IMG/VR virus record: IMGVR_UViG_3300037440_000117
Coordinates: 1 to 42,925 of that record
Source of the DNA: a virus
Reading direction: 5' to 3' (one strand)
Length of the DNA stretch: 42,925 nt
In this document: positions 7,455 to 41,597 of the stretch, one piece after another
How positions within the stretch are numbered: the stretch's first letter is position 1
Layout: each line of letters begins with the position of its first letter
The notes under the pieces: model-generated
Database searches by the model: none
Seen by the model: only the letters and a program-made list of their open reading frames with translations
Told to the model about the DNA's origin: nothing
Translations under genes and position numbers: made by a program

Positions 7455-7895
7455 ATGGCCTCCAGTAGCTTCATTGGGTTTATCGCCGGCCTGAAGTGGT
7501 CCACGAGTGGGTCCGTTGCCACTGTGGCCGGCGGGCTCGCATCGTCCTCGCCAACGGCGGGGATTGGCTACGGCACGGGGGCGGGCGGCGCAGCAACGCA
7601 GGGGACATCAAAAGCGACGACCGTCGTCTTGGACACGATCACCGGCACGATCACCATGCACACCGCGGCGTTGAATGCCGCGACGATCGTCAGTTTCACG
7701 CTGACCAATGCGGCGATTGCGCTGACCGATCATGTCCTCGTGCAGCACATCTCCGCGGGCACGGTCGGGGCGTATACCTGCACGGCGATTGGCGCGGCGG
7801 GGTCGGCCACGATCTATGTCCGCAACAACACGGCGGGGAATTTGAGCGAAGCGATCGTGTTGAAATTCACCGTGCTGAAATCGGTCGTGGCATGA
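7455..7895 (+). CDS. Hypothetical virion protein (G/A/T-rich, beta-type)
   Basis: 146-aa ORF, ATG 4 nt after the previous stop. Its stop overlaps the next start (ATGA). Confidence 0.5.
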   Translation: MASSSFIGFIAGLKWSTSGSVATVAGGLASSSPTAGIGYGTGAGGAATQGTSKATTVVLDTITGTITMHTAALNAATIVSFTLTNAAIALTDHVLVQHISAGTVGAYTCTAIGAAGSATIYVRNNTAGNLSEAIVLKFTVLKSVVA

Positions 7896-8824
7896 CCCGT
7901 CTCTGTGTTCTGGTCGTAGTGCTCTGGGCCACAACGGCACAGGCGCAGCATTTGGGATTTGTGGTCGGGCCGACCGCGCCCACGAATGCCGAAGCGGGCG
8001 ACTTCTGGAGCGACACGACCTCGAACACTCTGAAGAAGTTTAACGGGGTGACGTGGGACGATTTCAGCGGCGGCGGCGGATCGTCGGCGTGGGGCGGCAT
8101 CACGGGCACGCTCAGTAATCAAACCGACCTACAAAACGCGCTGGACGCGAAGCAAGCGGCGGGATCGTATGCGACGGCGGCCCAAGGCGCGACGGCGGAC
8201 AGTGCGTTGCAGCCTGCCGGGAATGGCGGATCGCTCACGGGGCTGACCAAGACGCAAGTGGGCCTCTCGAATGTCGATAACACGAGTGACGCGGGGAAGC
8301 CCGTCTCCAGCGCCACACAAACCGCGTTAGACGGCAAGCAGGCTACGCTGGTCAGCGCCACGAACATCAAGACGATCAACGGCTCGACGGTGTTGGGCTC
8401 GGGTGATCTGGTGGTGAGTGGCGGAGGGGGACTCGCGGCGGGAGACATCATCATTCGCCTCTCTGCGTGTGGCGCCGGGTTCGAGGAAGCAACCGAATTA
8501 AACGGCGTGACCGTGATCGGCACGCTCGCGGCGAATGCGGACGTGGGCACCACCGGCGGCGCGGACACGATCACGGGCGTGATCAATCACACGCATCCCG
8601 TCACTGATCCGGGCCATGTGCATGTCGAGAACAGCAACAACGTGACCACGGGGGGCTTGCGTGGTTGGGCAGCGGCGGATACCAGCACGAATACGTCCAC
8701 AGCGACGGGCTACAGCACCGCCAGTGCGACGACGGGTGTGACCACGACTGATCCCGCCGGCGGGGTGGCGAGTCTCGATAATCGGAGCGCCTTCGTCCGC
8801 GTCATTTTTTGCCGAAAAACGTAA
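7892..8824 (+). CDS. Tail fibre protein with signal-peptide-like N-terminus and collar-like C-terminal domain
   Basis: Track ORF 7496..8824 trimmed to ATG 7892 (ATGA overlap). N-terminus is MTRLCVLVVVLWATTAQA-Q. Contains the fibre repeats GLSNVDNTSDAGKPVSSATQTALDGK, and the C-terminus has GGADTITGVINHTHPVTDPGHVH. Confidence 0.6.
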   Translation: MTRLCVLVVVLWATTAQAQHLGFVVGPTAPTNAEAGDFWSDTTSNTLKKFNGVTWDDFSGGGGSSAWGGITGTLSNQTDLQNALDAKQAAGSYATAAQGATADSALQPAGNGGSLTGLTKTQVGLSNVDNTSDAGKPVSSATQTALDGKQATLVSATNIKTINGSTVLGSGDLVVSGGGGLAAGDIIIRLSACGAGFEEATELNGVTVIGTLAANADVGTTGGADTITGVINHTHPVTDPGHVHVENSNNVTTGGLRGWAAADTSTNTSTATGYSTASATTGVTTTDPAGGVASLDNRSAFVRVIFCRKT

Positions 8825-23302: not shown

Positions 23303-23356
23303 ATCACGGATCGACCGTCATGATTGGAACGACCGTTCAGAATCGGTAGTGACAAA

Positions 23357-23806
23357 ATGGCACACGAAACACAGGATCTGATAATCAATGGTTCGTTAAC
23401 GTGCGGAAACATCCGCACAGTGGAGCCGTGTGCGGTCGGCCAAGCAGGGTCGCAGGATACCACACTCGCGGCTCGGTTCTGGTCGAAAGTTGACCGCAAA
23501 TCACCCTCCGAATGCTGGCCGTGGCTCGCGCATGTGTCGAGCGGCTACGGGCGGTTCAAGGTCGCAGGGAAATATCGACAAGCCTCCGCGATCGCGTGGG
23601 AACTCGCGCACGGTCGGAAGCTCCCGGCCTCGCGGCTGATTCGCCACACCTGCGATTACTCGCGCTGCGTCAATCCGGCGCATCTGCGGGCCTCCACTCA
23701 AAAACACAACGTCCACGACGCGATGCGGAAGGGCCGTCATTGCCTGACGAACTGGCCCAAGGCGGTCGCTGCACGTAAGTCGTTCGACCGAAAGGACGCG
23801 GCGTAA
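23357..23806 (+). CDS. HNH homing-type endonuclease (HNH_3 pattern)
   Basis: Contains FWSKVDRKSPSECWPW...GYGRF...AIAWELAHGRKLP...IRHTCDYSRCVNPAHLRASTQKHNVHD. The start may instead be TTG 23324. Confidence 0.75.
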   Translation: MAHETQDLIINGSLTCGNIRTVEPCAVGQAGSQDTTLAARFWSKVDRKSPSECWPWLAHVSSGYGRFKVAGKYRQASAIAWELAHGRKLPASRLIRHTCDYSRCVNPAHLRASTQKHNVHDAMRKGRHCLTNWPKAVAARKSFDRKDAA

Positions 23807-25601: not shown

Positions 25602-25900
25602 AAGCCGATGTGATCCCAATGGGCCTGATCTGCGCGTGGTGCAAGACGACGATCCGCGAGGGCAGCGATCCATTCAGTCACGGCATCTGTGACGCCTGCG
25701 CGGACGTGGCCGCGGCGGAGGCGGATACCGTGGCGGTCGTGGATGCGATGGAGAGCGGCTGTGAAGATTTAGCCGAATCGCTCTACCGCCTGCGGGCCTT
25801 GTGGATCGGCGGACTCGCCTTGCCCTGGGGGGTTCTGACGGACGGCCAGCGGCAGGGGTATCGGAACGAAGTGGAACGACTCGTAAAGGAGATCAAGTGA
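25598..25900 (+). CDS. Cys-rich small protein
   Basis: ATGA overlap. Contains CAWC...HGICDAC. Confidence 0.4.
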   Translation: MKADVIPMGLICAWCKTTIREGSDPFSHGICDACADVAAAEADTVAVVDAMESGCEDLAESLYRLRALWIGGLALPWGVLTDGQRQGYRNEVERLVKEIK

Positions 25901-26577
25901 GCGAACCGAAAGCGTTGAACGTCTACCAGTGCATCGCCAAAGTCAGCGAGAAGCTGTCGAAGGAGGGCATCAGTAAGAGCCGGAGCAACGAACAGCAGCA
26001 CTACAAGTTCCGCGGTATTGACGACGTGTACAACGCCCTTGCGCCGATCCTGGCCGAGGTCGGACTCGTGGTGATCCCGCGCATCCTCTCCCGCGAGATG
26101 GCGGAGCGCGTCACTAAGAACGGCGGCGTCCTATTCTACGTGACCGTCGAAGCCGAATTTGATTTCGTGTCGATCGCGGACGGGTCGAAAGTGACGGCCC
26201 GGACCTACGGCGAAGCGATGGACTCCGGCGACAAGGCCACGAACAAGGCCATGAGCGCGGCCTATAAGTACGTCGCGTTTCAGACGTTCTGCATCCCGAC
26301 CGAAGGTAACAACGACGCCGATGCCACGACTCATGAAGTCGCCGCCAAAGCGCCGGACGGCTTCGAGGACATGGTGGTTGACCTGGAGCTCGTCGCCAAG
26401 GAACAAGGGACGGAACCACTACAGGCCGCGTGGAAGAAGTCGAAGCCGGCGCTTCGGAAGTATTTCACGGATACGAATCTCGACGGATGGGAAGCCATCA
26501 AGGCGAAGGCGGTTGAGTTCGACGCAAAGAAAGCCGCAGCCGCAAAGGCGAAAACGCCGGAACTGGTGGGCGCATGA
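25897..26577 (+). CDS. erf: ERF-family single-strand annealing protein
   Basis: Trimmed to GTG 25897 (GTGA overlap). Contains NVYQCIAKVSEKLSKEGISKSRSNEQQHYKFRGIDDVYNALAPILAEVGLVV...KATNKAMSAAYKYVAFQTFCIPT. Confidence 0.75.
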   Translation: MSEPKALNVYQCIAKVSEKLSKEGISKSRSNEQQHYKFRGIDDVYNALAPILAEVGLVVIPRILSREMAERVTKNGGVLFYVTVEAEFDFVSIADGSKVTARTYGEAMDSGDKATNKAMSAAYKYVAFQTFCIPTEGNNDADATTHEVAAKAPDGFEDMVVDLELVAKEQGTEPLQAAWKKSKPALRKYFTDTNLDGWEAIKAKAVEFDAKKAAAAKAKTPELVGA

Positions 26578-27224
26578 CCTTCACCATCATCGACGCCGAA
26601 CAACGCTCGCCGGAATGGTTTCAGGCTCGCGCCGGCAAGCTGACCGGCTCCCGCGCCGCCGACATGCTCGCTACGATCAAGAGCGGGGAAGCGGCGGCAC
26701 GCCGGGACTATCGGATGCAACTCGTCTGCGAACGGTTGACCGGCCAACCCCAAGAGGATGGTTTCGTCAACGTCGCGATGCAGCGGGGTATCGATCTCGA
26801 GCCCGCCGCCTTTGCCGCCTACGAGGCGCTGACGGGCGCTGTGGCGGTGCGGACTGGCTTCCTGAGCCACAACACACATCTCGCCGGCTGTTCGCTGGAC
26901 GGCCATGTAGACGGCTTTACGGGCATCGTGGAAATCAAGTGCCCGAAGTCGGCCACACATCTGAAGTACTGGCGCGGTAATAGCGAAGCGCCGAGCGACT
27001 ACCTCCCGCAGATCACGCACAACTTGTGGATCACGGGGGCGCAGTGGTGCGACTTCCTGAGCTTCGATGATCGGTTCGGCCCTGAGCTCCAGACGTTCCT
27101 GGTGCGGGTCAAGCGGAGCGACGTGGACATCGACGGCTACGAGCGGAAGGCGCTGGCGTTTCTCGCGGAAGTCGAGGCGGAGTATCTGGCGATCAAGACG
27201 ATGACGAAGGGGGTAGCGGCGTGA
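26574..27224 (+). CDS. YqaJ / lambda-exonuclease-family recombination exonuclease
   Basis: Contains EQRSPEWFQARAGKLTGSRAADML...GIDLEPAAFAAYE...GCSLDGHV...IVEIKCPKS (PD-(D/E)xK). Confidence 0.75.
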   Translation: MTFTIIDAEQRSPEWFQARAGKLTGSRAADMLATIKSGEAAARRDYRMQLVCERLTGQPQEDGFVNVAMQRGIDLEPAAFAAYEALTGAVAVRTGFLSHNTHLAGCSLDGHVDGFTGIVEIKCPKSATHLKYWRGNSEAPSDYLPQITHNLWITGAQWCDFLSFDDRFGPELQTFLVRVKRSDVDIDGYERKALAFLAEVEAEYLAIKTMTKGVAA

Positions 27225-27466
27225 GCGAACGTGATCCGAATGAACTCGGCGCCTTGTGGGTGAAGACGGGCCGCAGGGGCGACTACATGACCGGGAAGAT
27301 TGGCGATCAGCCCGTCGTGGTGTTCAAGAACGACCGGAAGGCCGCTGGCAGTAATGCGCCCGACTGGCGCGTGATGAAGCCGGTGAAGCAGGACCGCGAG
27401 CAGGATCAGCGGATCACCGGCCCCCGTCCGCCGGCCACGATTGACGACAACGACATCCAGTTCTGA
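27221..27466 (+). CDS. DUF736-like small protein ending in an SSB-like acidic tip (DDNDIQF)
   Basis: GALWVKTGRRGDYMTGKIGDQPVVVFKNDRKAAGSNAPDWRV resembles the DUF736 pattern. The C-terminus is IDDNDIQF. GTGA overlap with the exonuclease gene. Confidence 0.4.
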   Translation: MSERDPNELGALWVKTGRRGDYMTGKIGDQPVVVFKNDRKAAGSNAPDWRVMKPVKQDREQDQRITGPRPPATIDDNDIQF

Positions 27467-27780
27467 TGGCGATTGACTACCGCGTCCTCGCCCTCGCCAA
27501 GCCGGAGCCGCACAAGCGGGTCAAGGCGAGACGTAAGCGGCAGCATGCCAAGGCGCGGAAGTCGTGCCGAGCGGCCCGGTATACGCGGGATGGCGGGTGC
27601 TGCGTCCGCTGCGGGAAGCCGCTGAAGCTGAATCCCTCGGATGAGGGCGCGGACTGGTACAACGTGGCGAACATCAACGAGAAGCGGCCCCGGTCACTCG
27701 GCGGCGATCCGCTTGATCCGAAGGGACAGAACACGCTCTGCGCAAAGTGTCATACGGGCTCAGGGAGACACGCGAAGTGA
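27466..27780 (+). CDS. HNH-like nuclease (degenerate first His)
   Basis: Contains CVRCGKPL...ANINEKRPRSLGGDPLDPKGQNTLCAKCH. Confidence 0.45.
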   Translation: MAIDYRVLALAKPEPHKRVKARRKRQHAKARKSCRAARYTRDGGCCVRCGKPLKLNPSDEGADWYNVANINEKRPRSLGGDPLDPKGQNTLCAKCHTGSGRHAK

Positions 27781-28333: not shown

Positions 28334-28611
28334 GCACGCCGAATAAATACACACCACATCAGGGCGTGCAGGAAATCGCCCGCAGGAAGCGCCAGATGGA
28401 GCGCGGGCTCATCACGACTCAAGAGGTCACCCCGAAGACAGGATTGATCTGGAAGGCCTACGTTGCGCCCGTCAGCCATCCCCGCGAGTACGTGTGGAAG
28501 GGCGGCACCGCGATCCGTAAGCATCCGAAGGTGAAAGGTAAGAGCGCGATTAGGTTGGCGAAGAAGGCACGCCATCAAGAGGCGGCGGCGAAGAAAGCGC
28601 AGGCGGCGTAA
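28330..28611 (+). CDS. Hypothetical basic protein
   Basis: 93 aa, ATGA overlap, K/R-rich C-terminus. Confidence 0.4.
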   Translation: MSTPNKYTPHQGVQEIARRKRQMERGLITTQEVTPKTGLIWKAYVAPVSHPREYVWKGGTAIRKHPKVKGKSAIRLAKKARHQEAAAKKAQAA

Positions 28612-28626
28612 GTCGGTCCTGAGAGC
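28612..28626. repeat. 15-bp direct repeat, copy 1 (GTCGGTCCTGAGAGC)
   Basis: Identical to 28805..28819. Starts 1 nt after the stop at 28611. Confidence 0.9.
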
Positions 28627-28641
28627 ACAGAGGTTGATGAG

Positions 28642-28815
28642 ATGAAGTATCGAGTGGTGAGACGCCGTTTCGCTAACTCTCCGACGGCTTGGGGTGTCCA
28701 GATGCTTGATGGTTATACAGACGGGAAACCGTCATGGCGTCTGGCTACAGTACTGGTGTTTTATTCACGGGAATCTGCGCAGGAGTGGATTACGGCTAAG
28801 AGTCGTCGGTCCTGA
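28642..28815 (+). CDS. Possible 57-aa protein inside the repeat-flanked segment
   Basis: ATG 28642 with AGAGG 8 nt upstream. MKYRVVRRRFANSPTAWGVQMLDGYTDGKPSWRLATVLVFYSRESAQEWITAKSRRS. Third-position GC is clearly lower than in neighbouring genes. Confidence 0.35.
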   Translation: MKYRVVRRRFANSPTAWGVQMLDGYTDGKPSWRLATVLVFYSRESAQEWITAKSRRS

Positions 28816-28819
28816 GAGC
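28805..28819. repeat. 15-bp direct repeat, copy 2 (GTCGGTCCTGAGAGC)
   Basis: Identical to 28612..28626. Overlaps the stop codon of the 57-aa ORF. Confidence 0.9.
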
Positions 28820-28996
28820 GGCTGATGCGGCGTTGGGGCTTGGCTATGGCGGCTCAACGAAACACTGGCTCGCATCAGTCGCTCTGAGGATCGACGGATT
28901 TGACGCTCTGGAGAATTCGCGGGAGTAGACCAGCGAATCGTAAAAGAGGCTCCTAAGGCATCTGGAGGATTCGGGGCGCGTTAAACGCCCAGCGTC

Positions 28997-29062
28997 ATTG
29001 TCAATGTTAAGGCGCGCGATTGACAAGGTTAAGCAGGTTGATTGTCAACTTTAACGCAGGGC
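28997..29062. repeat. Three iterons phased at exactly 22 bp (ATTGWCAAnnTTAAsn)
   Basis: ATTGTCAATGTTAAGG at 28997, ATTGACAAGGTTAAGC at 29019, ATTGTCAACTTTAACG at 29041. The core ATTGWCAAT is near-palindromic. An AT-rich tract lies at 29129-29170, downstream. Confidence 0.8.
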
Positions 29063-29621
29063 TCGCGGCGGTCGTGAACGATACCCCGGTCGATGAGACC
29101 GTGGCGGCAAGCGGCGAAAGTGCGGCGCGAAATTATTTCGGTTTCATAGAGGAATTCGCTTGATTTTGAGAGGCGAAGGGTTGATGATGGCGGAAGTCGC
29201 GGCGAGGCTTGTTCAAGGCCCCGCCGCTGACCTACCGCACTCGCAACCGTTGGATAGAACGGAAGCAAGCGCAAGCAGGCTGATTCTAGCCTACCCGCTT
29301 CTCCCTCTACCAACCAAATCGAGCCAGGTATCGCGTTCTGAATGACGGGTTAGCCGTCTGAACTGGACGCCGGGTTTTTCATCATGCGGGCCGCGAGATC
29401 GGCGGTGGGCAGGCTGTGACGCTTCACAGAACCAGTGATGAACGGCTCGTGATTGACGCGAACGACTGACACGACCGAACGCATACCGCAGACCGTACGA
29501 CCGCTGACGTTTTCGGCGGACGGAGGGGCTGAACAGGATCACTCAGTAGTAGCGAGATGAGACTGCGGGCGCGGTGGATCGGGGAGGGCGGGGCGACGGG
29601 GTTGGTGTCTCTAAATTCTTT

Positions 29622-30002
29622 ATGGAGCAGTTCGCATCAGCGATTCAGCGATTGTGGGCCGAAAAGAAACGGCTCGGTGGAAATCGGCGCAAGCGGCTCG
29701 CGTTTTTGCTGCGATGGGCCGGACTCCACGTCGCGCACAAGAAGGATTACGAAAAGCGGCGTCGAGGTCCAGCGCGGACGAAAAGCTGGAAACGGTTTAC
29801 AAACGCGATGTGCTGGGTCTGCCATGTGGCGAAGGCGACGTGCCGTCACCACATCATCCAGGTGCAGCACGGCGGCGGCAACGACAACAGAAACATCGTG
29901 CCGCTTTGCGACGGGTGCCACGCTGAAGTGCATCCGTGGATGGACGCCTCAGCGCATCCGATGGTGAAAGAAGCGGAAGAAATGGACGCCTTCCGTCTCT
30001 AG
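29622..30002 (+). CDS. HNH endonuclease
   Basis: Trimmed to ATG 29622. Contains CWVCHVAKATCRHHIIQVQHGGGNDNRNIVPLCDGCHAEVH. Confidence 0.75.
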   Translation: MEQFASAIQRLWAEKKRLGGNRRKRLAFLLRWAGLHVAHKKDYEKRRRGPARTKSWKRFTNAMCWVCHVAKATCRHHIIQVQHGGGNDNRNIVPLCDGCHAEVHPWMDASAHPMVKEAEEMDAFRL

Positions 30003-31060: not shown

Positions 31061-31072
31061 AAAGGGTGTCCA

Positions 31073-31405
31073 TTGGCTCACTCTATCAAGGCGTTATTGA
31101 GTCATTACGACGCAGCCTTTACCCAGAAATTCGGAGCCCGGTATCCGATTTCGCCGAAGAAGGATTGCGCGCTCGCGAAGCAGTTGTTAGCCCTCTACAC
31201 GTTCGAGCAACTCGCGGGATGGGTGGACGACTTCTTCGCACTGGAGGACGAATGGATCGAGCAGAGCGGGTACAGCTTCGGGGTGTTCCGGTCACAACTG
31301 GGGAAGGTGATCGCGTCGAAGACGATGACCAGCCCACGTATCGAGCGCCCGAAGGTCGTCCAGACGCGCCACAACACGCTCGAACAGTACCGCGTGATCA
31401 AGTGA
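31073..31405 (+). CDS. Hypothetical protein
   Basis: 110-aa ORF with a non-ATG start (TTG). Confidence 0.4.
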   Translation: MAHSIKALLSHYDAAFTQKFGARYPISPKKDCALAKQLLALYTFEQLAGWVDDFFALEDEWIEQSGYSFGVFRSQLGKVIASKTMTSPRIERPKVVQTRHNTLEQYRVIK

Positions 31406-31498
31406 CGGGCAAACAGTTAGCCGAGCAATTCCGTCTCTGGGCGGCCGAGATGGCGATGCGACCAACGCGCCCACCAAGAGTACCGGGAGTGACCCAAA

Positions 31499-31696
31499 AT
31501 GACTGAATACGATGTGACGGAAGCGATGTTGCGGTATGGCGGCTCTTTCGTCCAGCAACTCGCACGACTCATTCGCATGGCCGACGCGGACAACAAGCGA
31601 CGGTTAGTTGAGGCGTTTCCAGAATACCTAGAACAGTATCGCGAACTAGCGCGGAACGCAGTCGTTGCCCCGCAGTCCGACAAGGAAACCAAATGA
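31499..31696 (+). CDS. Hypothetical protein
   Basis: 65 aa. A possible 34-aa coupled ORF (31402..31506) bridges the gap upstream. Confidence 0.4.
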   Translation: MTEYDVTEAMLRYGGSFVQQLARLIRMADADNKRRLVEAFPEYLEQYRELARNAVVAPQSDKETK

Positions 31697-35811: not shown

Positions 35812-36055
35812 TTACGAAGAGCGTTTCTACGTGGCGCTGAAGCGCATTACATCCTATATGACGCCAGCGCAGTTGCGGCGCGCTGCCGAGCGGCAATACG
35901 GCCTTGATCACGCGGAAGCCTTGGAGATGGCCTATGAGAACGTGATCGGCGAAGCAAAGCACGCGCTACGCGGCTATCGAAAACCCAAGGTCGGCTCTCA
36001 CGGTAACTCGCCACTCAGCGAAGCGAGCCCTTCGACACAGAGCGAAGCGCCATGA
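35798..36055 (+). CDS. Hypothetical protein
   Basis: Track ORF trimmed to ATG 35798. Confidence 0.35.
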   Translation: MPKVNYEERFYVALKRITSYMTPAQLRRAAERQYGLDHAEALEMAYENVIGEAKHALRGYRKPKVGSHGNSPLSEASPSTQSEAP

Positions 36056-36279
36056 GCTTTCTCCGTCGTCTCTGGACCGCCTGCCTCGAACATGACGACT
36101 ACCGCGAGCGCGACGGGCAGGGAAGGCTCGAGCTTGTCTGCAGGACGTGTGGTGATCGCCGGCACGTCTTAGAGGGGGAGATGCTGAAAGGACCGCAGTA
36201 CGAGCAGCACCAGGATTTAGGCACGTGTACGACGAAGGCCCGGAAGGCGATGCCGATGATTGGGAGGAAACGGGCGTAG
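36052..36279 (+). CDS. Hypothetical small protein
   Basis: 75 aa, ATGA overlap. Confidence 0.35.
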   Translation: MSFLRRLWTACLEHDDYRERDGQGRLELVCRTCGDRRHVLEGEMLKGPQYEQHQDLGTCTTKARKAMPMIGRKRA

Positions 36280-36482
36280 AGATGAATGATTTGGGAGCGC
36301 ATCCGCGCCACGGAGGCCGATGCATTCTCCGGTGTAGTTCTTACAGGTCAGCTATCGCACGACGAGGAATCATCCAGTCCTGCCGCGGTAACGGTGGGGC
36401 GAGTATCGCGGCCGATGGTTACGGGTTTCTAGATAAACCGCAAACGTCACGTCGCCCCTGACTGGAGCTTTGAGAGCCACGA

Positions 36483-37172
36483 ATGAAGCCATATTACGAG
36501 CAAGACGGGATCACGATCTACCACGGTGACGCCCGAGAGGTATTGCCGACGATCCAGCAGCCGGAGAGCTGCATCACTGATCCCGTGTGGCCGAATTCGG
36601 TGTTTCCGAACGTGCCCGATCCGATGCTCCTGTTCGCGCAGACGGTGCGGCTGCTCACCGTCAAACGTCTAGTCGTGCATCTGGGCTGCACAAGCGATCC
36701 GCGTTTTCTCGGTTCGGTGGGCGATGACCGTTTCCCGTTCGTTCGAGTTTGCTGGTTGCGCTATGCGCGGCCGTCCTATCGCGGCCGGATTCTGGTCGGC
36801 TCGGACGTGGCGTACGTGTTCGGAGAGGTGCCGCCGTCTCGTAAGGGCGCGCACGTCCTGAGCGGCGAAGTCGTCGCCAGTAACAACCGGACAAAGTTAC
36901 AACACACCCAGCGCGGCACGGGGCAGTTAGAAGATGTTGATTACGACGCAATGCCACATCCCAGCCCGAGGCGCTACGAGCACGTCGCGTGGCTTGTTGG
37001 CATCTATGGCCTTGGCGGCGTGATTGATCCGTTCTGCGGCACGGGAACCACGCTAGAAGCTGCTCAGCGCGCAGGGATTGCGGCCGTGGGAATCGAGATC
37101 GAGGAAGCGTATTGCGAGATCGCGGCGAAGCGTCTAATTCAGCGGACGCTTCCGATTGAGGCAACGGCATGA
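36483..37172 (+). CDS. Divergent DNA methyltransferase paralog (motif IV is DPVW)
   Basis: The N- and C-termini parallel the 33094 gene (MKPYYEQDGITIYHGDAREVL, IDPFCGTGTTLEAAQRAGIAAVGIEIEEAYCEIAAKRL). The catalytic loop reads CITDPVWP, and HPSPRR replaces HPTQKP. Confidence 0.6.
   Translation: MKPYYEQDGITIYHGDAREVLPTIQQPESCITDPVWPNSVFPNVPDPMLLFAQTVRLLTVKRLVVHLGCTSDPRFLGSVGDDRFPFVRVCWLRYARPSYRGRILVGSDVAYVFGEVPPSRKGAHVLSGEVVASNNRTKLQHTQRGTGQLEDVDYDAMPHPSPRRYEHVAWLVGIYGLGGVIDPFCGTGTTLEAAQRAGIAAVGIEIEEAYCEIAAKRLIQRTLPIEATA
36492..36526. repeat. 35-bp exact repeat shared by the two methyltransferase genes (copy 2)
   Basis: Identical to 33103..33137. Confidence 0.9.
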
Positions 37173-37276: not shown

Positions 37277-37675
37277 ATGACCCCGATCCAGCAGGCGAGA
37301 GAGAACGTCCAGGCACCGACGCTCGAAGAGATTGAACGGGCGCTGTTGAACTTCGATAAGGCCGTAGACGCTGAAGACGTGTTGGCGGGGACGGTTCACG
37401 CGGCGGTCTGCACGGCCATGCTGCAACGTGTGGCGAACGCCCTCCGTTCCGGCTCCGCGCTGCTGTCGCGGGAGGATCGGGACTGGCAACCGATTGAGAC
37501 GGCGCCGAAGGGGCAACTAGTAATCGTGTATTTTCGGGAAGGCGGGACCACGACGCGGCGGCTGTGCGCGACGAGCTGGGATAACCATGTCTGCTGGCGC
37601 GACGTTCTCGGGAACCCAGGATCAACGCCGACCCACTGGATGCCGCTCCCTGCTCCCCCGAAAGGCACCCCATGA
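37277..37675 (+). CDS. DUF551-like protein
   Basis: The C-terminal WQPIETAPKGQLVIVYF...PTHWMPLPAPP is the DUF551 signature. The start may be ATG 37169 (ATGA overlap) or 37277. Confidence 0.5.
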   Translation: MTPIQQARENVQAPTLEEIERALLNFDKAVDAEDVLAGTVHAAVCTAMLQRVANALRSGSALLSREDRDWQPIETAPKGQLVIVYFREGGTTTRRLCATSWDNHVCWRDVLGNPGSTPTHWMPLPAPPKGTP

Positions 37676-38700
37676 TCCCCGATCCCGCCCGAGCGCAGAC
37701 CGTGGAACAGTTGTTCACAAGCCTTGATGATCTCGCTATCGAAATGGATCAGCGGCAGAACTCTGGCGAGTTTCCTCTGTTGTGTATCAAGCAACGGCAA
37801 TTACGAGCCGCCCTGATCACCGCCCTCCGCGTGTCACGAGAGGACGAAAAGAAGGTCGACGAAACGGGCGGTTTCAGCCCAGATAACGGTAGTAAACGCC
37901 AATCCGACAACAAGTTAACACTGTCGACGGATTGGTTGCCTTCCCGTCTCCGCGCCCATCGTGCGATGCGCCTCTACGAGCCGAGTATGGAAGGCTACCA
38001 CGCGGCGGTCGCCGTCTATGAAGCGGCCTTCGGTGAATCGTCTCAGGAGGACGCCCTCGCCGCCGCCCCGCCGCCCGAGCCCTCCGGATCGGTGGAGGAC
38101 GCAAAGGCGGAACTACGTGGCCTCATCATGCAGTACGCGAACCTCTTCGACGTGGCCGATGCCGTGCCTGAGATGTTCGATACGGTCGAATTACACATGG
38201 ACGCAGCCGTAGATGCCCTCATCTCCGCCGTGCGAGCCGATGAACGCCAGACGCCGCCCGAGCCCTCCGGATCGGTGGAACCGACACGCGCTGAGATCGA
38301 GTGCGCCTTAGACGAGTTTCCCAACGGGGGAGCCCACCCTTACGTGCGTGCCGAACAATTACTGTGGCGGTTCCTTCATTTCTCTGCGGTGCGAGCGCAG
38401 CAGGCCGAGCAGCTTGTACGGCGCGCGTGTGCTTGTGCTGTTCCTGATCCCGTGATGCAGGCAGACGCCAAGTTCTATTGCCACCAGTGCAGCTTTGAGA
38501 CGGGCGCTAGACCGACACAGCTTGAGCCTGAAGCATGGCTGAGACGCGCCGAGGCGGCCGAAGCCCGACTCGCCCACCAGGAGACAGGACCGCCGGTGTT
38601 CGATCCCACGTCCCTGACCCCTGCCGAACGCAGCGCCCTGAATGAAACGACCACCGTGGAGCCGCGAACGTATCCGCCGTCCCCCTCGGAGGAGCCATGA
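37672..38700 (+). CDS. Hypothetical 342-aa protein with an internal duplication
   Basis: PPEPSGSVE followed by a helix occurs twice, 61 codons apart. CxxC near the C-terminus. Confidence 0.5.
   Translation: MIPDPARAQTVEQLFTSLDDLAIEMDQRQNSGEFPLLCIKQRQLRAALITALRVSREDEKKVDETGGFSPDNGSKRQSDNKLTLSTDWLPSRLRAHRAMRLYEPSMEGYHAAVAVYEAAFGESSQEDALAAAPPPEPSGSVEDAKAELRGLIMQYANLFDVADAVPEMFDTVELHMDAAVDALISAVRADERQTPPEPSGSVEPTRAEIECALDEFPNGGAHPYVRAEQLLWRFLHFSAVRAQQAEQLVRRACACAVPDPVMQADAKFYCHQCSFETGARPTQLEPEAWLRRAEAAEARLAHQETGPPVFDPTSLTPAERSALNETTTVEPRTYPPSPSEEP
38071..38096. repeat. 26-bp exact intragenic repeat, copy 1
   Basis: ccgcccgagccctccggatcggtgga is identical to 38254..38279 (183 bp apart, in frame). 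Confidence 0.9.
38254..38279. repeat. 26-bp exact intragenic repeat, copy 2
   Basis: Identical to 38071..38096. Confidence 0.9.
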
Positions 38701-39194: not shown

Positions 39195-39521
39195 ATGACT
39201 GAGCGTTACTGTCCTAATTGTGGCGATAAACTCGATAACTTCACCGCGCAGCACGAACATGACATCGTGTGTCGGTGGCGGTATGCCGTTGAGCGCGGGA
39301 AGCTCGCGATGGAGCAGTCCAACGTGAGAATCAGGCAACTAATGGCCCTAGAAGATGTGGCGATGGCTCGCATTACCGAGTTGGAATCCACCCTCACGCG
39401 CATCGCGACTCACGAGTGCATGTGCTGTTCTGGAGATTGCTGCTGTGGATTCTTATTTCAGGGCTGGGCGAGAGCGGCGATTAAGACTCAGCAAAACTAC
39501 AGCAAGCCGTCAGCGTCGTGA
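39195..39521 (+). CDS. Zinc-ribbon plus coiled-coil protein with a dense Cys cluster (CMCCSGDCCCG)
   Basis: 108 aa. Contains CPNCG...HEHDIVC, then a heptad region, then HECMCCSGDCCCGFLF. Confidence 0.4.
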   Translation: MTERYCPNCGDKLDNFTAQHEHDIVCRWRYAVERGKLAMEQSNVRIRQLMALEDVAMARITELESTLTRIATHECMCCSGDCCCGFLFQGWARAAIKTQQNYSKPSAS

Positions 39522-39536
39522 GAAACTGAGGGCCGC

Positions 39537-39761
39537 ATGAGGTGGGCTCTCAAGCAAGCGAATCTCTTGTATCGAGAACCGTCGCGGGTTCAGGACTGGC
39601 CCGAGATCCTTCCCGGCGACATCTACGAATTCACCGATCCGCCATTCTATGAGGTGGACCCGCACACAAGAAAAACGAAGGCCACGCTTCAATGTTTTCG
39701 CGTATTAGACGAGCATCTACGACTGGACCCAATCGCGCGAGATAGCTGGAAACACATCTAA
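39537..39761 (+). CDS. Hypothetical protein
   Basis: 74-aa ORF, last gene before the terminase leader. Confidence 0.35.
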   Translation: MRWALKQANLLYREPSRVQDWPEILPGDIYEFTDPPFYEVDPHTRKTKATLQCFRVLDEHLRLDPIARDSWKHI

Positions 39762-39881
39762 CCGTACACATCACGTCATTCCGCCTCATCCTACTCTGGG
39801 ATGATCGCAGAGACTGGCTCCTGTCCACCTGACCCCGTACGGCCGGACGCCCCGCGCACCGTTACGGGCATGGCATAAAGT

Positions 39882-40157
39882 ATGCCTACTTCTGGCGCCT
39901 TCAAGAAGGGTGACGGCCGTCCTCGCAAGCCTAAGGGTGCGGTTAATAAGACGACTAAGAGCGCCAGAGAAGCCTTCGCCCTTGCCTTCGAGGGATGCGG
40001 CGGGTATACGAGCCTGACGGCCTGGGCGATCGCGAATCAAACCGACTTTTACAAACTCTACGCCCGCCTGATCCCAGTCGAGCACGTCGGCGCGGGCGGT
40101 GAAGGCCCGATTTCGACCATCGTGCGGCATGTCTACGAATCCGAGAAACAGGCCTAA
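39882..40157 (+). CDS. Terminase small subunit (candidate)
   Basis: 91 aa directly upstream of the large terminase. The N-terminal FKKGDGRPRKPKGAVNKTTKSAREAF matches the common GxxGRPKG-type small-terminase/DUF5681 N-terminus. Confidence 0.5.
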   Translation: MPTSGAFKKGDGRPRKPKGAVNKTTKSAREAFALAFEGCGGYTSLTAWAIANQTDFYKLYARLIPVEHVGAGGEGPISTIVRHVYESEKQA

Positions 40158-40166
40158 AAATGCGAA

Positions 40167-41597
40167 GTGTCCATCGTGGAGTATCGCATGGCTGAGCGCG
40201 TCTTAGAGATGCGGTGGCGCGGCCCGATTGCGGACTTCCTACGAGATGAGACGCCGGAGATCGATCTTGAGGGTGCCCTGTCCAGCGGGAAGACGACGGC
40301 CTGTCTCTGGAAGGTCTTCAACAGCCTGCACGATAAGTTAGGGATTCATTGGTGGATTGGTCGCTACGGCGACGGCGAGACGCAAACAAAGGTACGCCCG
40401 GCGTTTGAGCAGATTTGCCAGCAGGCCGGCAGTATCCCGGCGTGGAATGCAAAGGAACTTGCCTATGATTTCTCGAACGGATCAAAATGTTACGCCTACG
40501 GTCTGAAGTCACCTGATGCCTTGAGTCGCTATTCCAAGATGCGCGGCATGGGCGTGGCGGGGATTTACAACGACCAGACCGAGGAGTTACCAGAGGACTT
40601 TAGCTTAGAGCTTCGCCTAAGACTCCGGCAACCTGGTTTCCCGCATCAGTTGATCTTCAGTCCGAACCCGCCGAACGTGACGCATTGGCTGGCGCAGCAG
40701 TTCCCTACGGATAACCGCTTTCCCGGTCGGAAGTATTACGCGATTTCGATCCACGATAACGCGCACAACCTGCCGGCGGCGCTATTGGCCTCTGCCCTGA
40801 TGGCCTATCCGCCTGAGCACGCGAAGCACCGGAGCGTGATTCTCGGGCTCCGCGGCATGAACGTGATGGGTGAGCCGGTCTATAAGGGCGCGTTCATTCG
40901 GGCGGTGCATGAGATTCCGGTGGCCTACGCGCCGCAACTCGCGCTGGAGATGGCGCTTGATTTCGGCAAGCACCATCCGTGTGTGATCTTCCGGCAAGTC
41001 TCACCGCTTGGTCAGGTCCGGTTCCTTGGGGGCATTCTCGGCCAGCACCTCTACCTGGATGACTTTATCGACATTGCGTTGACCCATCGGAGCCAGTGGT
41101 TTCCGAATCCGATCGAGGTGAAGGAGTGCTGTGATCCAGCCGGCGCCGCGGATACGTCACACGGGACAGAAGGCGCGGTGAAGACTCTTAGGGCGAAGGG
41201 CGTGCGGCCCGTCTCGGTGCCTGACAGTAATTCGCCCGCGGTGCGGCTGTCGATGATCGAGCGCATGGCCTCGCAGATGCGGAAGCGCGCGGCGGATCGG
41301 TCCGAAGCGTTCGTGGTGAACTCAGACAGTGAGCGATGGTTGACCATTTCGGAACAGTCCACCGTGCCGGATCGGTTCCTCGCGGATGGCTTTGAAGCGG
41401 GCTACGTGTGGGACGAGCACATGGTGAGCGTGGGCAACAAACAGGTACGGAAGGCGCGCAAAGACGGCTGGTATGAGCACGGCCAGAACTGCGCGGAGTA
41501 TCTCGAGTTGAATTTTGGGAACGAGCCGTTCAAGAAGAAGACGAGACCGCAATCGCGTGTGCCGATGCCGCGTGGCGAGATGAGTTGGGCCGGATGA
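40167..41597 (+). CDS. terL: Terminase large subunit
   Basis: 476 aa. Walker A-like LEGALSSGKTTA. Sits upstream of the portal. The alternative start ATG 40188 has GGAG 7 nt upstream. Confidence 0.75.
   Translation: MSIVEYRMAERVLEMRWRGPIADFLRDETPEIDLEGALSSGKTTACLWKVFNSLHDKLGIHWWIGRYGDGETQTKVRPAFEQICQQAGSIPAWNAKELAYDFSNGSKCYAYGLKSPDALSRYSKMRGMGVAGIYNDQTEELPEDFSLELRLRLRQPGFPHQLIFSPNPPNVTHWLAQQFPTDNRFPGRKYYAISIHDNAHNLPAALLASALMAYPPEHAKHRSVILGLRGMNVMGEPVYKGAFIRAVHEIPVAYAPQLALEMALDFGKHHPCVIFRQVSPLGQVRFLGGILGQHLYLDDFIDIALTHRSQWFPNPIEVKECCDPAGAADTSHGTEGAVKTLRAKGVRPVSVPDSNSPAVRLSMIERMASQMRKRAADRSEAFVVNSDSERWLTISEQSTVPDRFLADGFEAGYVWDEHMVSVGNKQVRKARKDGWYEHGQNCAEYLELNFGNEPFKKKTRPQSRVPMPRGEMSWAG

Follow-up and report, generated by a model that had tools for sequence, protein, structure and literature searches.

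Among phages, cis-acting leader RNAs are represented by the HK022 put RNAs of approximately 70 nucleotides (nt), the lambda pR′ 6S leader with its qut site and the untranslated leader of phage P4, and large ornate RNAs by GOLLD and ROOL, which are located near tRNA genes. Here we analyse IMG/VR virus record IMGVR_UViG_3300037440_000117, a stretch of 42,925 nt (hereafter, the window), in which a gene-free interval of 0.8 kilobases (kb), 28816–29621, had been put forward in a preliminary description as a candidate replication origin or structured RNA locus. Comparison with related phage contigs strongly supports the structured RNA: an element of approximately 290 nt on the + strand (29333–29615), comprising a structured domain, a G-tract and a terminal box, is common to 12 phage contigs, with covariation across these 12 members and a clear asymmetry between the strands. 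That a conserved + strand structured element exists here is, in our judgement, very likely. The gene-free stretch is best read as a boundary between two operons that bears a self-contained non-coding RNA module.

Relatives of the locus were found by a protein search with the HNH nuclease encoded just downstream, and the contigs encoding relatives of that protein were fetched. Every one of these contigs has a stretch without open reading frames (ORFs) upstream of the HNH gene, 270–755 nt long where the contig reaches. By BLASTN and MAFFT, 29338–29621 is homologous to the upstream DNA of contigs L024, L042, L029, L022, L050, L051 and L052, and this comparison with the relatives’ loci identifies the RNA helices, not the phased repeats (iterons) behind the origin candidate, as the conserved part. 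When 8 members were aligned with MAFFT alone, RNAalifold predicted 52 pairs, and compensatory changes are seen in 24 of these. A covariance model built from this 8-member alignment, R1, was run against 316 kb of related phage DNA, where its only matches are 12 members, with E-values of 1e-18 to 1e-86.

The 3′ domain of the element (29333–29573, approximately 240 nt) is a multi-helix structure on the + strand. Helix P1 pairs 29333–29340 with 29363–29370 and P2 pairs 29344–29348 with 29354–29358. P3 (29372–29385/29435–29448) closes a three-way junction with H2 (29391–29394/29402–29405) and H3 (29414–29419/29424–29429), and is followed by P5 (29486–29491/29563–29568) and P6 (29501–29506/29514–29519). 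Two stem-loops that had been spotted earlier in the window alone, 29344–29358 and 29414–29429, are present and correspond to the conserved helices P2 and H3. The stem sequence of H3 differs in at least six members with pairing kept: its arms are CTGTGA/TCACAG in the window, GCGTGG/CCACGC in L024, TCGGGG/CCCCGA in L042, TGAGGA/TCCTCA in L029, GCGTAGC/GCTACGC in L022 and GCGCAGC/GTTGCGC in L050. An ATTGAC at 29452, listed earlier as a further iteron half-site, does exist but is not an iteron; it sits in the conserved single-stranded RNA junction GCUCGUGA..ACGCGAACGAC. Single-sequence folds recover the P3/H2/H3 three-way junction in 9 of the 12 members, with L052, L056 and L053 folding differently within P3.

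In the 12-member alignment (A7, fitted to the model), the 44 pairs comprise 511 cells, 95.3% of them paired, compared with 78.0 ± 1.1% after column shuffling. Both sides have changed in 26 of the 44 pairs (14 ± 2 in shuffles), and the covariation score is 0.477, against 0.156 ± 0.016 in shuffles and at most 0.09 in controls in which the helices were slid. Sliding the 3′ partners by 1–3 columns lowers pairing to 34–43%, and on each of five measures all 500 shuffles fall short of the observed value. On the + strand there are 60 G·U or U·G cells and 6 A·C or C·A cells, and two G·U pairs are invariant or nearly so (12 of 12 and 10 of 12 members). Because G·U cells outnumber A·C cells 60 to 6, the + strand is the one that folds; the surrounding genes have the same sense. 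Given this folding and the conserved promoter upstream, RNA is the most straightforward interpretation. The z-scores of the minimum free energy (MFE), −1.4 for the + strand and −2.7 for the − strand, are uninformative in this GC-rich sequence.

Downstream of the 3′ domain lies the G-tract (29574–29601, + strand), with purine-rich G-runs at the same position in all members. Within it, GGGGAGGGCGGGGCGACGGGG (29581–29601) is the only canonical + strand G-quadruplex motif in the whole window, where shuffles hold 4.7 ± 2.2, and a canonical motif occurs at the same position in 7 of 14 relatives. The genome as a whole is depleted of canonical G-quadruplex motifs, with one on the − strand at 37668–37690. 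A conserved GTGTCTYTAAR box (29605–29615, + strand) forms the 3′ edge of the module, after which the HNH gene or another next gene begins.

The conserved core is, as far as searches of sequence collections can tell, a previously uncatalogued structured RNA of uncultured phages, without an Rfam counterpart. Nothing in the window matches Rfam 15 at the gathering threshold, and the window holds no tRNA; at E ≤ 10, the interval 28500–29800 gives two chance-level matches only. No family, including HEARO, GOLLD, ROOL, group I and II introns, self-cleaving ribozymes and riboswitches, matches the locus, and 15 related loci searched at E ≤ 1 yield only a tRNA in contig L001 and one chance-level snoRNA match. 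The RNA was not found in 185k bacterial and archaeal reference genomes, where matches to a pattern derived from P2 were all attributable to chance and nhmmer matched only a hairpin of approximately 30 nt. Exact-word DNA scans with conserved 20–25-mers returned only the contigs of L001 and L011 themselves and one chance match, L020. The IscB–omega RNA system was considered and rejected: the protein encoded next to the RNA has 126 amino acids (aa) with an HNH motif only and no RuvC, and scores 20.1 bits with the NCBIfam IscB model against a cut-off of 175. IscB proteins have approximately 400 or more aa, with a split RuvC plus HNH. Pieces of the element may be listed in a catalogue of approximately 10,000 unnamed candidate structured RNAs from IMG/VR, whose motifs span 29–151 nt (PMC10690425). 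Provided that the RNA is real, for which the covariation is a strong indication, a new large multi-domain family would join the few ornate phage RNAs.

In most members, a promoter with an AT-rich tract precedes the 3′ element, and between the two lie a 5′ hairpin and another structured domain. The putative promoter of the window is sigma-70-like (29160–29188, + strand), with a −35 hexamer TTGATT (29160–29165), a 17-nt spacer and a −10 hexamer GATGAT (29183–29188), which together predict a start at approximately 29195. The pattern of TTGAnT, exactly 17 nt and GAnnAT or GGTAAT recurs in 7 divergent sequences (the window, L042, L052, L025, L049, L035 and L056), among which the spacers have diverged while the hexamers and their spacing are kept. 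Directly upstream of the −35 hexamer is the AT-rich tract (29129–29159, + strand) with a conserved TCATAGRAGAA motif. This tract, drawn earlier as 29129–29170, is present as described and is 100% identical in L001, an IMG/VR contig that is the closest relative and whose exonuclease is 94% identical to that of the window. Because the tract adjoins the conserved −35 and −10 hexamers and is kept where the iterons are missing, it is more readily understood as a promoter-upstream element than as an unwinding one, and it may be an UP element or an activator site.

Between the predicted start and the 3′ domain, the 5′ hairpin (approximately 29199–29228) and the middle domain occupy 29195–29332 on the + strand, with a central hairpin AGGCUG/UAGCCU at approximately 29279–29294. 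Both hairpins recur in single-sequence folds, with stem sequences that differ from member to member; RNAalifold on the MAFFT alignment gave no structure for the middle domain, in which the hairpins are out of register. The case for this domain, made by single-sequence folds only, is the weaker one. A 16-nt inverted repeat (29079–29094/29318–29333, 81% complementary and extendable to approximately 19 base pairs (bp)) brackets the promoter and middle domain, and was rejected as a conserved helix because no counterpart is seen by eye in L024 or L042; it is specific to the window. Three further contigs, L025, L049 and L035, form a type B, which shares the promoter and middle domain and has a divergent 3′ domain; R1 finds no match to type B, whose 3′ core reads by eye as AACCAG..GGCU..ACGCGAACGA.

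What follows the RNA differs among members. The HNH nuclease gene noted earlier right after the region is confirmed at 29622–30002 on the + strand; its 126-aa product matches PF01844 at 23.8 bits (cut-off 21.4) and has the invariant C..C, HH and N..C..C columns. Four other IMG/VR contigs, L053–L056, were found by the P2-derived DNA pattern, which had been picked independently of HNH. They hold full-length RNA members, and all four have no HNH gene; instead, the RNA is followed after 28–95 nt by a protein of 107–152 aa with the signature F..FW..YPR+..K..A..AW. The L053 and L056 proteins and their homologue in L024, the three that were scanned, match PHROGs 9474, 270 and 9327 at E-values of 1e-14 to 1e-18, the labels of which, ‘replication initiation protein’ and ‘primosomal protein’, are annotations and not tested functions. 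Searches of Pfam, NCBIfam and PDB sequences give no match for the F..FW..YPR proteins. The F..FW..YPR protein comes after HNH in L024, L022, L051 and L052 and further downstream in L035 and L049; in L025, L042 and L050 a different family comes after HNH, of which the window has a copy at 31066–31506.

Loci with and without HNH have the same flanks, the RNA before the site and the F..FW..YPR gene after it. Because some members have the RNA and the next gene without HNH, the HNH gene is an optional insertion, and its constant company with the RNA in our first sample arose because those loci were found via HNH. Judging from these arrangements, it most likely encodes a free-standing homing endonuclease that has settled beside a highly conserved sequence. 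Free-standing phage HNH homing endonucleases next to tRNA or other conserved genes are known from the seg and mob genes of T4, and the optional HNH gene would provide a clean example of such a nuclease settling beside a conserved RNA gene. The window contains three HNH genes of different PHROG families within 6.7 kb (23324–23806, 27466–27780 and 29622–30002), which suggests that homing-type nucleases come and go frequently in this group of phages. Abutting the 5′ side of the RNA in L054 (781–1356, oriented), a DUF559/Vsr-type endonuclease domain can be discerned by eye (...GHDFHEKTKEQVTERNRRDRDLQADGWTVLHVSG...); if so, it would be another type of nuclease located beside the same RNA.

We favour a cis-acting leader RNA for four reasons: the module is always in the sense orientation, a promoter of its own is usually present, which gene comes next makes no difference to it, and it carries many invariant unpaired nucleotides, as protein-binding or ligand-binding RNAs do. 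It sits where the recombination block ends and, in relatives, a block that opens with replication-annotated genes begins. The module would be transcribed from approximately 29195 as a leader RNA of approximately 430 nt, whose target in cis would be the downstream operon, running from HNH through the replication-module genes and the methylases as far as the late genes. The folded core and G-rich tail would control transcription read-through or translation. Taken whole, function included, the statement that a promoter-driven structured element serves as a cis-acting leader RNA heading a replication or middle operon has, in our estimate, an even chance of being correct. The position at the start of an operon with replication-type genes, in phages with no recognisable initiator, is what would make its function informative, as it could turn out to be a novel way of controlling middle or late phage transcription by RNA, or a novel type of origin.

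Several observations weigh against such a leader RNA. Fitting A7 to the model inflates its pairing counts, although the independent MAFFT alignment shows the same helices, and the sample is small, with 12 members of 9–10 clearly distinct lineages that were partly drawn via the HNH gene. The promoter is proposed from consensus plus conservation, the copy in the window matches at 8/12, below the threshold of the promoter scan, and this conserved promoter-like site is the sole feature that points to transcription of the element. L054 and L055 have neither promoter nor middle domain, and the 3′ domain can therefore occur by itself. No terminator, anti-terminator or helix sequestering a ribosome-binding site could be shown. 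From the RNA end to the next start codon there are 28–95 nt, and the next gene differs among members; the variable distance and the differing gene argue against a gene-specific translational operator. A long-range helix between a CU-tract and the G-tract, which would close the structure in the MFE fold, was rejected because its duplex energies are no better than those of shuffles.

The main rival, which we consider unlikely, is an RNA-primed, transcription-dependent origin of the type of ColE1 RNA II, T4 R-loops or mitochondrial CSBII. The RNA would run into the G-tract and leave a persistent RNA–DNA hybrid or hybrid G-quadruplex, which would be processed into the leading-strand primer, and the primosomal-like protein encoded just downstream in relatives would load the replisome. 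The architecture is compatible, with a promoter, a structured RNA of approximately 430 nt, a G-run and a short AT-rich patch, and the only + strand G-quadruplex motif in 42.9 kb falls exactly at the 3′ end of the RNA and is canonical at the same position in 7 of 14 relatives. Primer formation driven by a G-quadruplex at mitochondrial CSBII is an established precedent (PMC3488243). In relatives, the RNA also lies directly upstream of proteins that PHROG labels as replication initiation or primosomal, and in our genome no initiator, helicase or primase was recognised among approximately 40 ORFs scanned. Yet the many invariant unpaired nucleotides and the ornate junction exceed what a primer needs, half of the members are without a canonical G-quadruplex motif, and no antisense regulator like RNA I was found. 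Moreover, the PHROG labels are annotations and the window is without that protein, and cumulative GC skew has no turning point here, though skew is uninformative with genes facing nearly all one way. The fuller proposal, that the module is a protein-independent RNA-primed origin of a double-stranded DNA phage in which the folded RNA delivers a G-quadruplex or R-loop tail as leading-strand primer, is one we hold to be rather doubtful; if true, it would explain both the unrecognisable initiator gene and the clustering of homing nucleases with replication genes.

A trans-acting non-coding RNA, improbable in our view, would account for the module as a sponge or decoy that captures ribosomes or an RNA-binding protein of the host via its repeated GGA/GGAGG, or as a scaffold of the GOLLD or ROOL type. 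It would suit a self-contained module with its own promoter and many invariant unpaired nucleotides, indifferent to the identity of the downstream gene, with 2–7 GGA motifs in the G-tail (counted by eye) and, in L001, an adjoining tRNA gene. No terminator marks a discrete 3′ end, however, the covariance models of GOLLD and ROOL do not match the RNA, and L054 and L055 have no promoter of their own.

The classical iteron origin, by contrast with the leader RNA, does not survive the comparison with relatives well, and we regard it as very unlikely; here an initiator would bind three iterons, melt the AT-rich tract and recruit the host replisome. The three iterons of the preliminary description are there at an exact 22-bp period (28997–29062, starting at 28997, 29019 and 29041) with the core ATTGWCAA-NN-TTAA. 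The consensus ATTGWCAANNTTAAS has three exact matches in the window, all at the iterons, where 0.86 would be expected by chance even allowing 2 mismatches. The units are approximately 68% identical overall, with ATTGWCAA, in which TTGWCAA is palindromic, and TTAA kept at exact phasing and the spacers diverged; conserved cores at exact phasing suggest selection for binding by a dimeric protein and not neutral slippage. The phasing of 22 bp is typical of plasmid iterons. In favour of an origin, this is the only place in the genome with such phased repeats, whose cores are conserved while their spacers have diverged, and the locus heads a replication-like module in relatives.

Against it, the iteron motif is absent from all 74 related loci that were fetched, including the closest relative, nor does any relative carry a different array of repeats at the corresponding position; the iterons are therefore not conserved. 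An origin held by a single member is unlikely to be the origin of the clade. In L001, one short degenerate unit replaces the three iterons (ATTGATTTGAACGC; GCGTCATTGATTTGAACGCA), and L001 and L024 each have a single degenerate ATTGATTTG unit at the site, so the array appears to be a recent addition specific to this genome. The AT-rich tract begins 67 bp past the last iteron and is conserved in relatives without iterons, where it abuts the conserved promoter. The flanking ORFs have no match to a Rep-type initiator in Pfam, PHROG or NCBIfam. DnaA-box-like sites are neither enriched nor clustered in the window (20 against 25.8 expected), and the locus has none bar two sites with one mismatch inside the upstream ORF. 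Cumulative GC skew, where an origin might have left an inflection, shows none here, although this check is uninformative where nearly all genes face one way. The iteron-type origin thus fails the refuting condition set in the preliminary description itself and finds no support, with iterons in none of the 74 related loci, an AT-rich tract kept without them and a skew without a turning point; a relation of the locus to replication may nevertheless persist in another form, as the RNA adjoins PHROG replication-labelled genes in relatives. The iterons lie 105–165 bp upstream of the −35 hexamer and, in a hairpin loop, might bind a dimeric DNA-binding protein of this phage that regulates the module promoter. 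As promoters themselves they were rejected, their only match being 9/12 on the − strand. The lesson for annotation is that phased repeats plus an AT-rich tract are insufficient for calling an origin, as comparison with relatives moved the conserved signal to the flanking RNA.

Least probable of all, a remote prospect in our estimate, is a fold in single-stranded + strand DNA, exposed in recombination-dependent or rolling-circle replication and acting as an ssi or primosome-assembly signal or single-stranded DNA promoter: covariation alone cannot separate RNA from single-stranded DNA, the neighbouring protein is labelled primosomal and the phage has Erf and YqaJ recombination genes, but the invariant or near-invariant G·U pairs and the 60 wobble cells speak against it, since G·T is poorly tolerated in DNA hairpins, and the conserved promoter upstream, which faces in the sense direction, speaks for transcription.

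Upstream of the RNA module, the left side of the gene-free stretch has its own history. A stem-loop noted earlier at 28822–28878 is present and forms the inside of a larger inverted repeat on the + strand with 26-nt arms (28804–28829/28871–28896, 88% complementary, 41-nt loop). This long inverted repeat is probably an end-of-operon or processing hairpin. The homologous segment of L001 (9748–9980) has the same arms around approximately 180 nt that include a tRNA gene, called by ARAGORN as Phe with an unusual anticodon AAA (Rfam tRNA, 53.7 bits), and the conserved stem may be a processing site able to hold different cargo. An exact 15-bp direct repeat, GTCGGTCCTGAGAGC, occurs on the + strand at 28612–28626 and again at 28805–28819, and as a single copy in L001, where it begins the left arm of the long hairpin. 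The 193-bp insertion bounded by this duplication holds a 57-aa ORF (28642–28815, + strand) that is absent from L001 and has no family match. By comparison of the two sequences, the segment looks like a small gene cassette inserted in the left arm.

L001 aligns with 28896–29206 and is near-identical outside the iterons. Two conserved non-coding blocks lie on the + strand in this interval. Block A (28896–28996), near-identical in L001, holds hairpins; one of these, at 28975–28992, reads GGGCG/CGCCC in the window and ACGG/CCGT in L001, a comparison of two sequences by eye that leaves the structure tentative. Block B (29049–29128, CTTTAACGCAGGGCTCGCGGCGGTCGTGAACGATACC...GCGGCAAGCGGCGAAAGT) is common to L001 and partly to L024 and L025. 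Part of block B (29049–29115) occurs in L011 as an inverted pair, 7743–7805 (+) and 8058–8124 (−), approximately 250 bp apart. These inverted copies of approximately 65 bp sit inside a predicted ORF of 166–190 aa of this related phage, perhaps as a scar left by recombination or as the two termini of a small mobile insert. Some relatives have, a few hundred bp ahead of the RNA module, a G-rich hexanucleotide microsatellite, (GGTCGK)n (L044, approximately 525–685; L046, 1–105), which differs in length between these near-identical contigs and is not present in the examined part of L042 (1–560).

The window represents the genome of a tailed phage, a circle of 42,798 bp whose two ends in the record overlap by 127 bp. 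Structural genes occupy approximately 0–19 kb, two minus-strand genes lie at 21.5–23 kb and the large terminase gene is at 40188–41597. A rightward early block comprises Erf (25897–26577), the YqaJ exonuclease (26574–27224) and the HNH genes at 23324, 27466 and 29622, with two DNA methylases further on. No helicase, primase or initiator was recognised among approximately 40 ORFs scanned with Pfam, PHROGs and NCBIfam, and to that extent the earlier impression of a genome with no recognisable replication protein holds. BLASTN and megablast with the region and 23 kb of the genome gave no DNA match to GenBank phages, a TerL protein search found a sole relative at 25% identity, and an exact-protein look-up has no record identical to the exonuclease. 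A contig from a metagenome-assembled genome of Gemmatimonadaceae (L041, DATLXE010000358.1) has genes related to that of the YqaJ exonuclease and to 27221–27466, with a partial HNH match; this possible prophage is the only hint at a host.

All sequence features listed in the preliminary description were found to be present, and its 0.8-kb gene-free stretch is real. In a codon-usage log-odds scan there is no positive frame across 28816–29621 bar one weak coding blip at 29020–29140. The ORF at 29020–29163 was rejected as a gene because 1-nt indels relative to L001 break its frame, and the ORF at 29184–29345 because its ATG ATG becomes TAG in L025 and L029; in the DNA shared at the latter, the frames read by eye differ between L025 and L042. 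Small ORFs here are not conserved as proteins in relatives. The lower GC content remarked on earlier is correct relative to upstream DNA (0.57–0.59 versus approximately 0.61–0.63), but the entire segment of 28–36 kb is as low. The stretch is the largest one without genes, but others exist, with further gaps of 360–430 bp. By a crude gene call, these ORF-poor gaps are of approximately 430 bp (36055–36483) and 360 bp (39521–39882), and neither has an Rfam match at the gathering threshold; the second lies just upstream of the putative small and large terminase genes and might be a packaging site.

Set beside known systems, the locus resembles several in part. T4 seg/mob-type homing endonucleases share with the downstream gene a small HNH ORF held tightly between conserved neighbours, with presence or absence varying among syntenic genomes; here, specific cleavage and homing by the gene product are predictions. 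HEARO, the omega RNA of IscB (RF02033), is likewise a structured RNA of approximately 300 nt that directly precedes a co-oriented HNH nuclease gene, but our RNA has no Rfam match, its neighbour is a 126-aa protein without RuvC, and it also occurs without HNH. The iteron origins of plasmids R6K, pSC101, P1 and F and the lambda ori similarly have at least three repeats approximately 22 bp apart with an AT-rich tract and promoter nearby; unlike them, the iterons of the window are unconserved and have no recognised cognate Rep, and a promoter-upstream element is the better account of the AT-rich tract. ColE1 RNA II and the mitochondrial LSP/CSBII system are alike in having a promoter, a structured RNA of several hundred nt and a G-rich block and in requiring no element-encoded initiator. 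They differ in that no counterpart of RNA I was found here and the G-quadruplex is canonical in approximately half of the members; the likeness is one of architecture, and a replication start at this site is conjecture. Compared with the put, 6S/qut and P4 leaders, the element has no sequence or model similarity, and no terminator or antitermination target was identified here; at approximately 430 nt it is several-fold larger than put, with a three-way junction and long-range helices. It shares with these leaders a constitutive-looking promoter, a structured untranslated leader in sense orientation, a place at the head of a long co-directional gene array and independence from the gene that follows.

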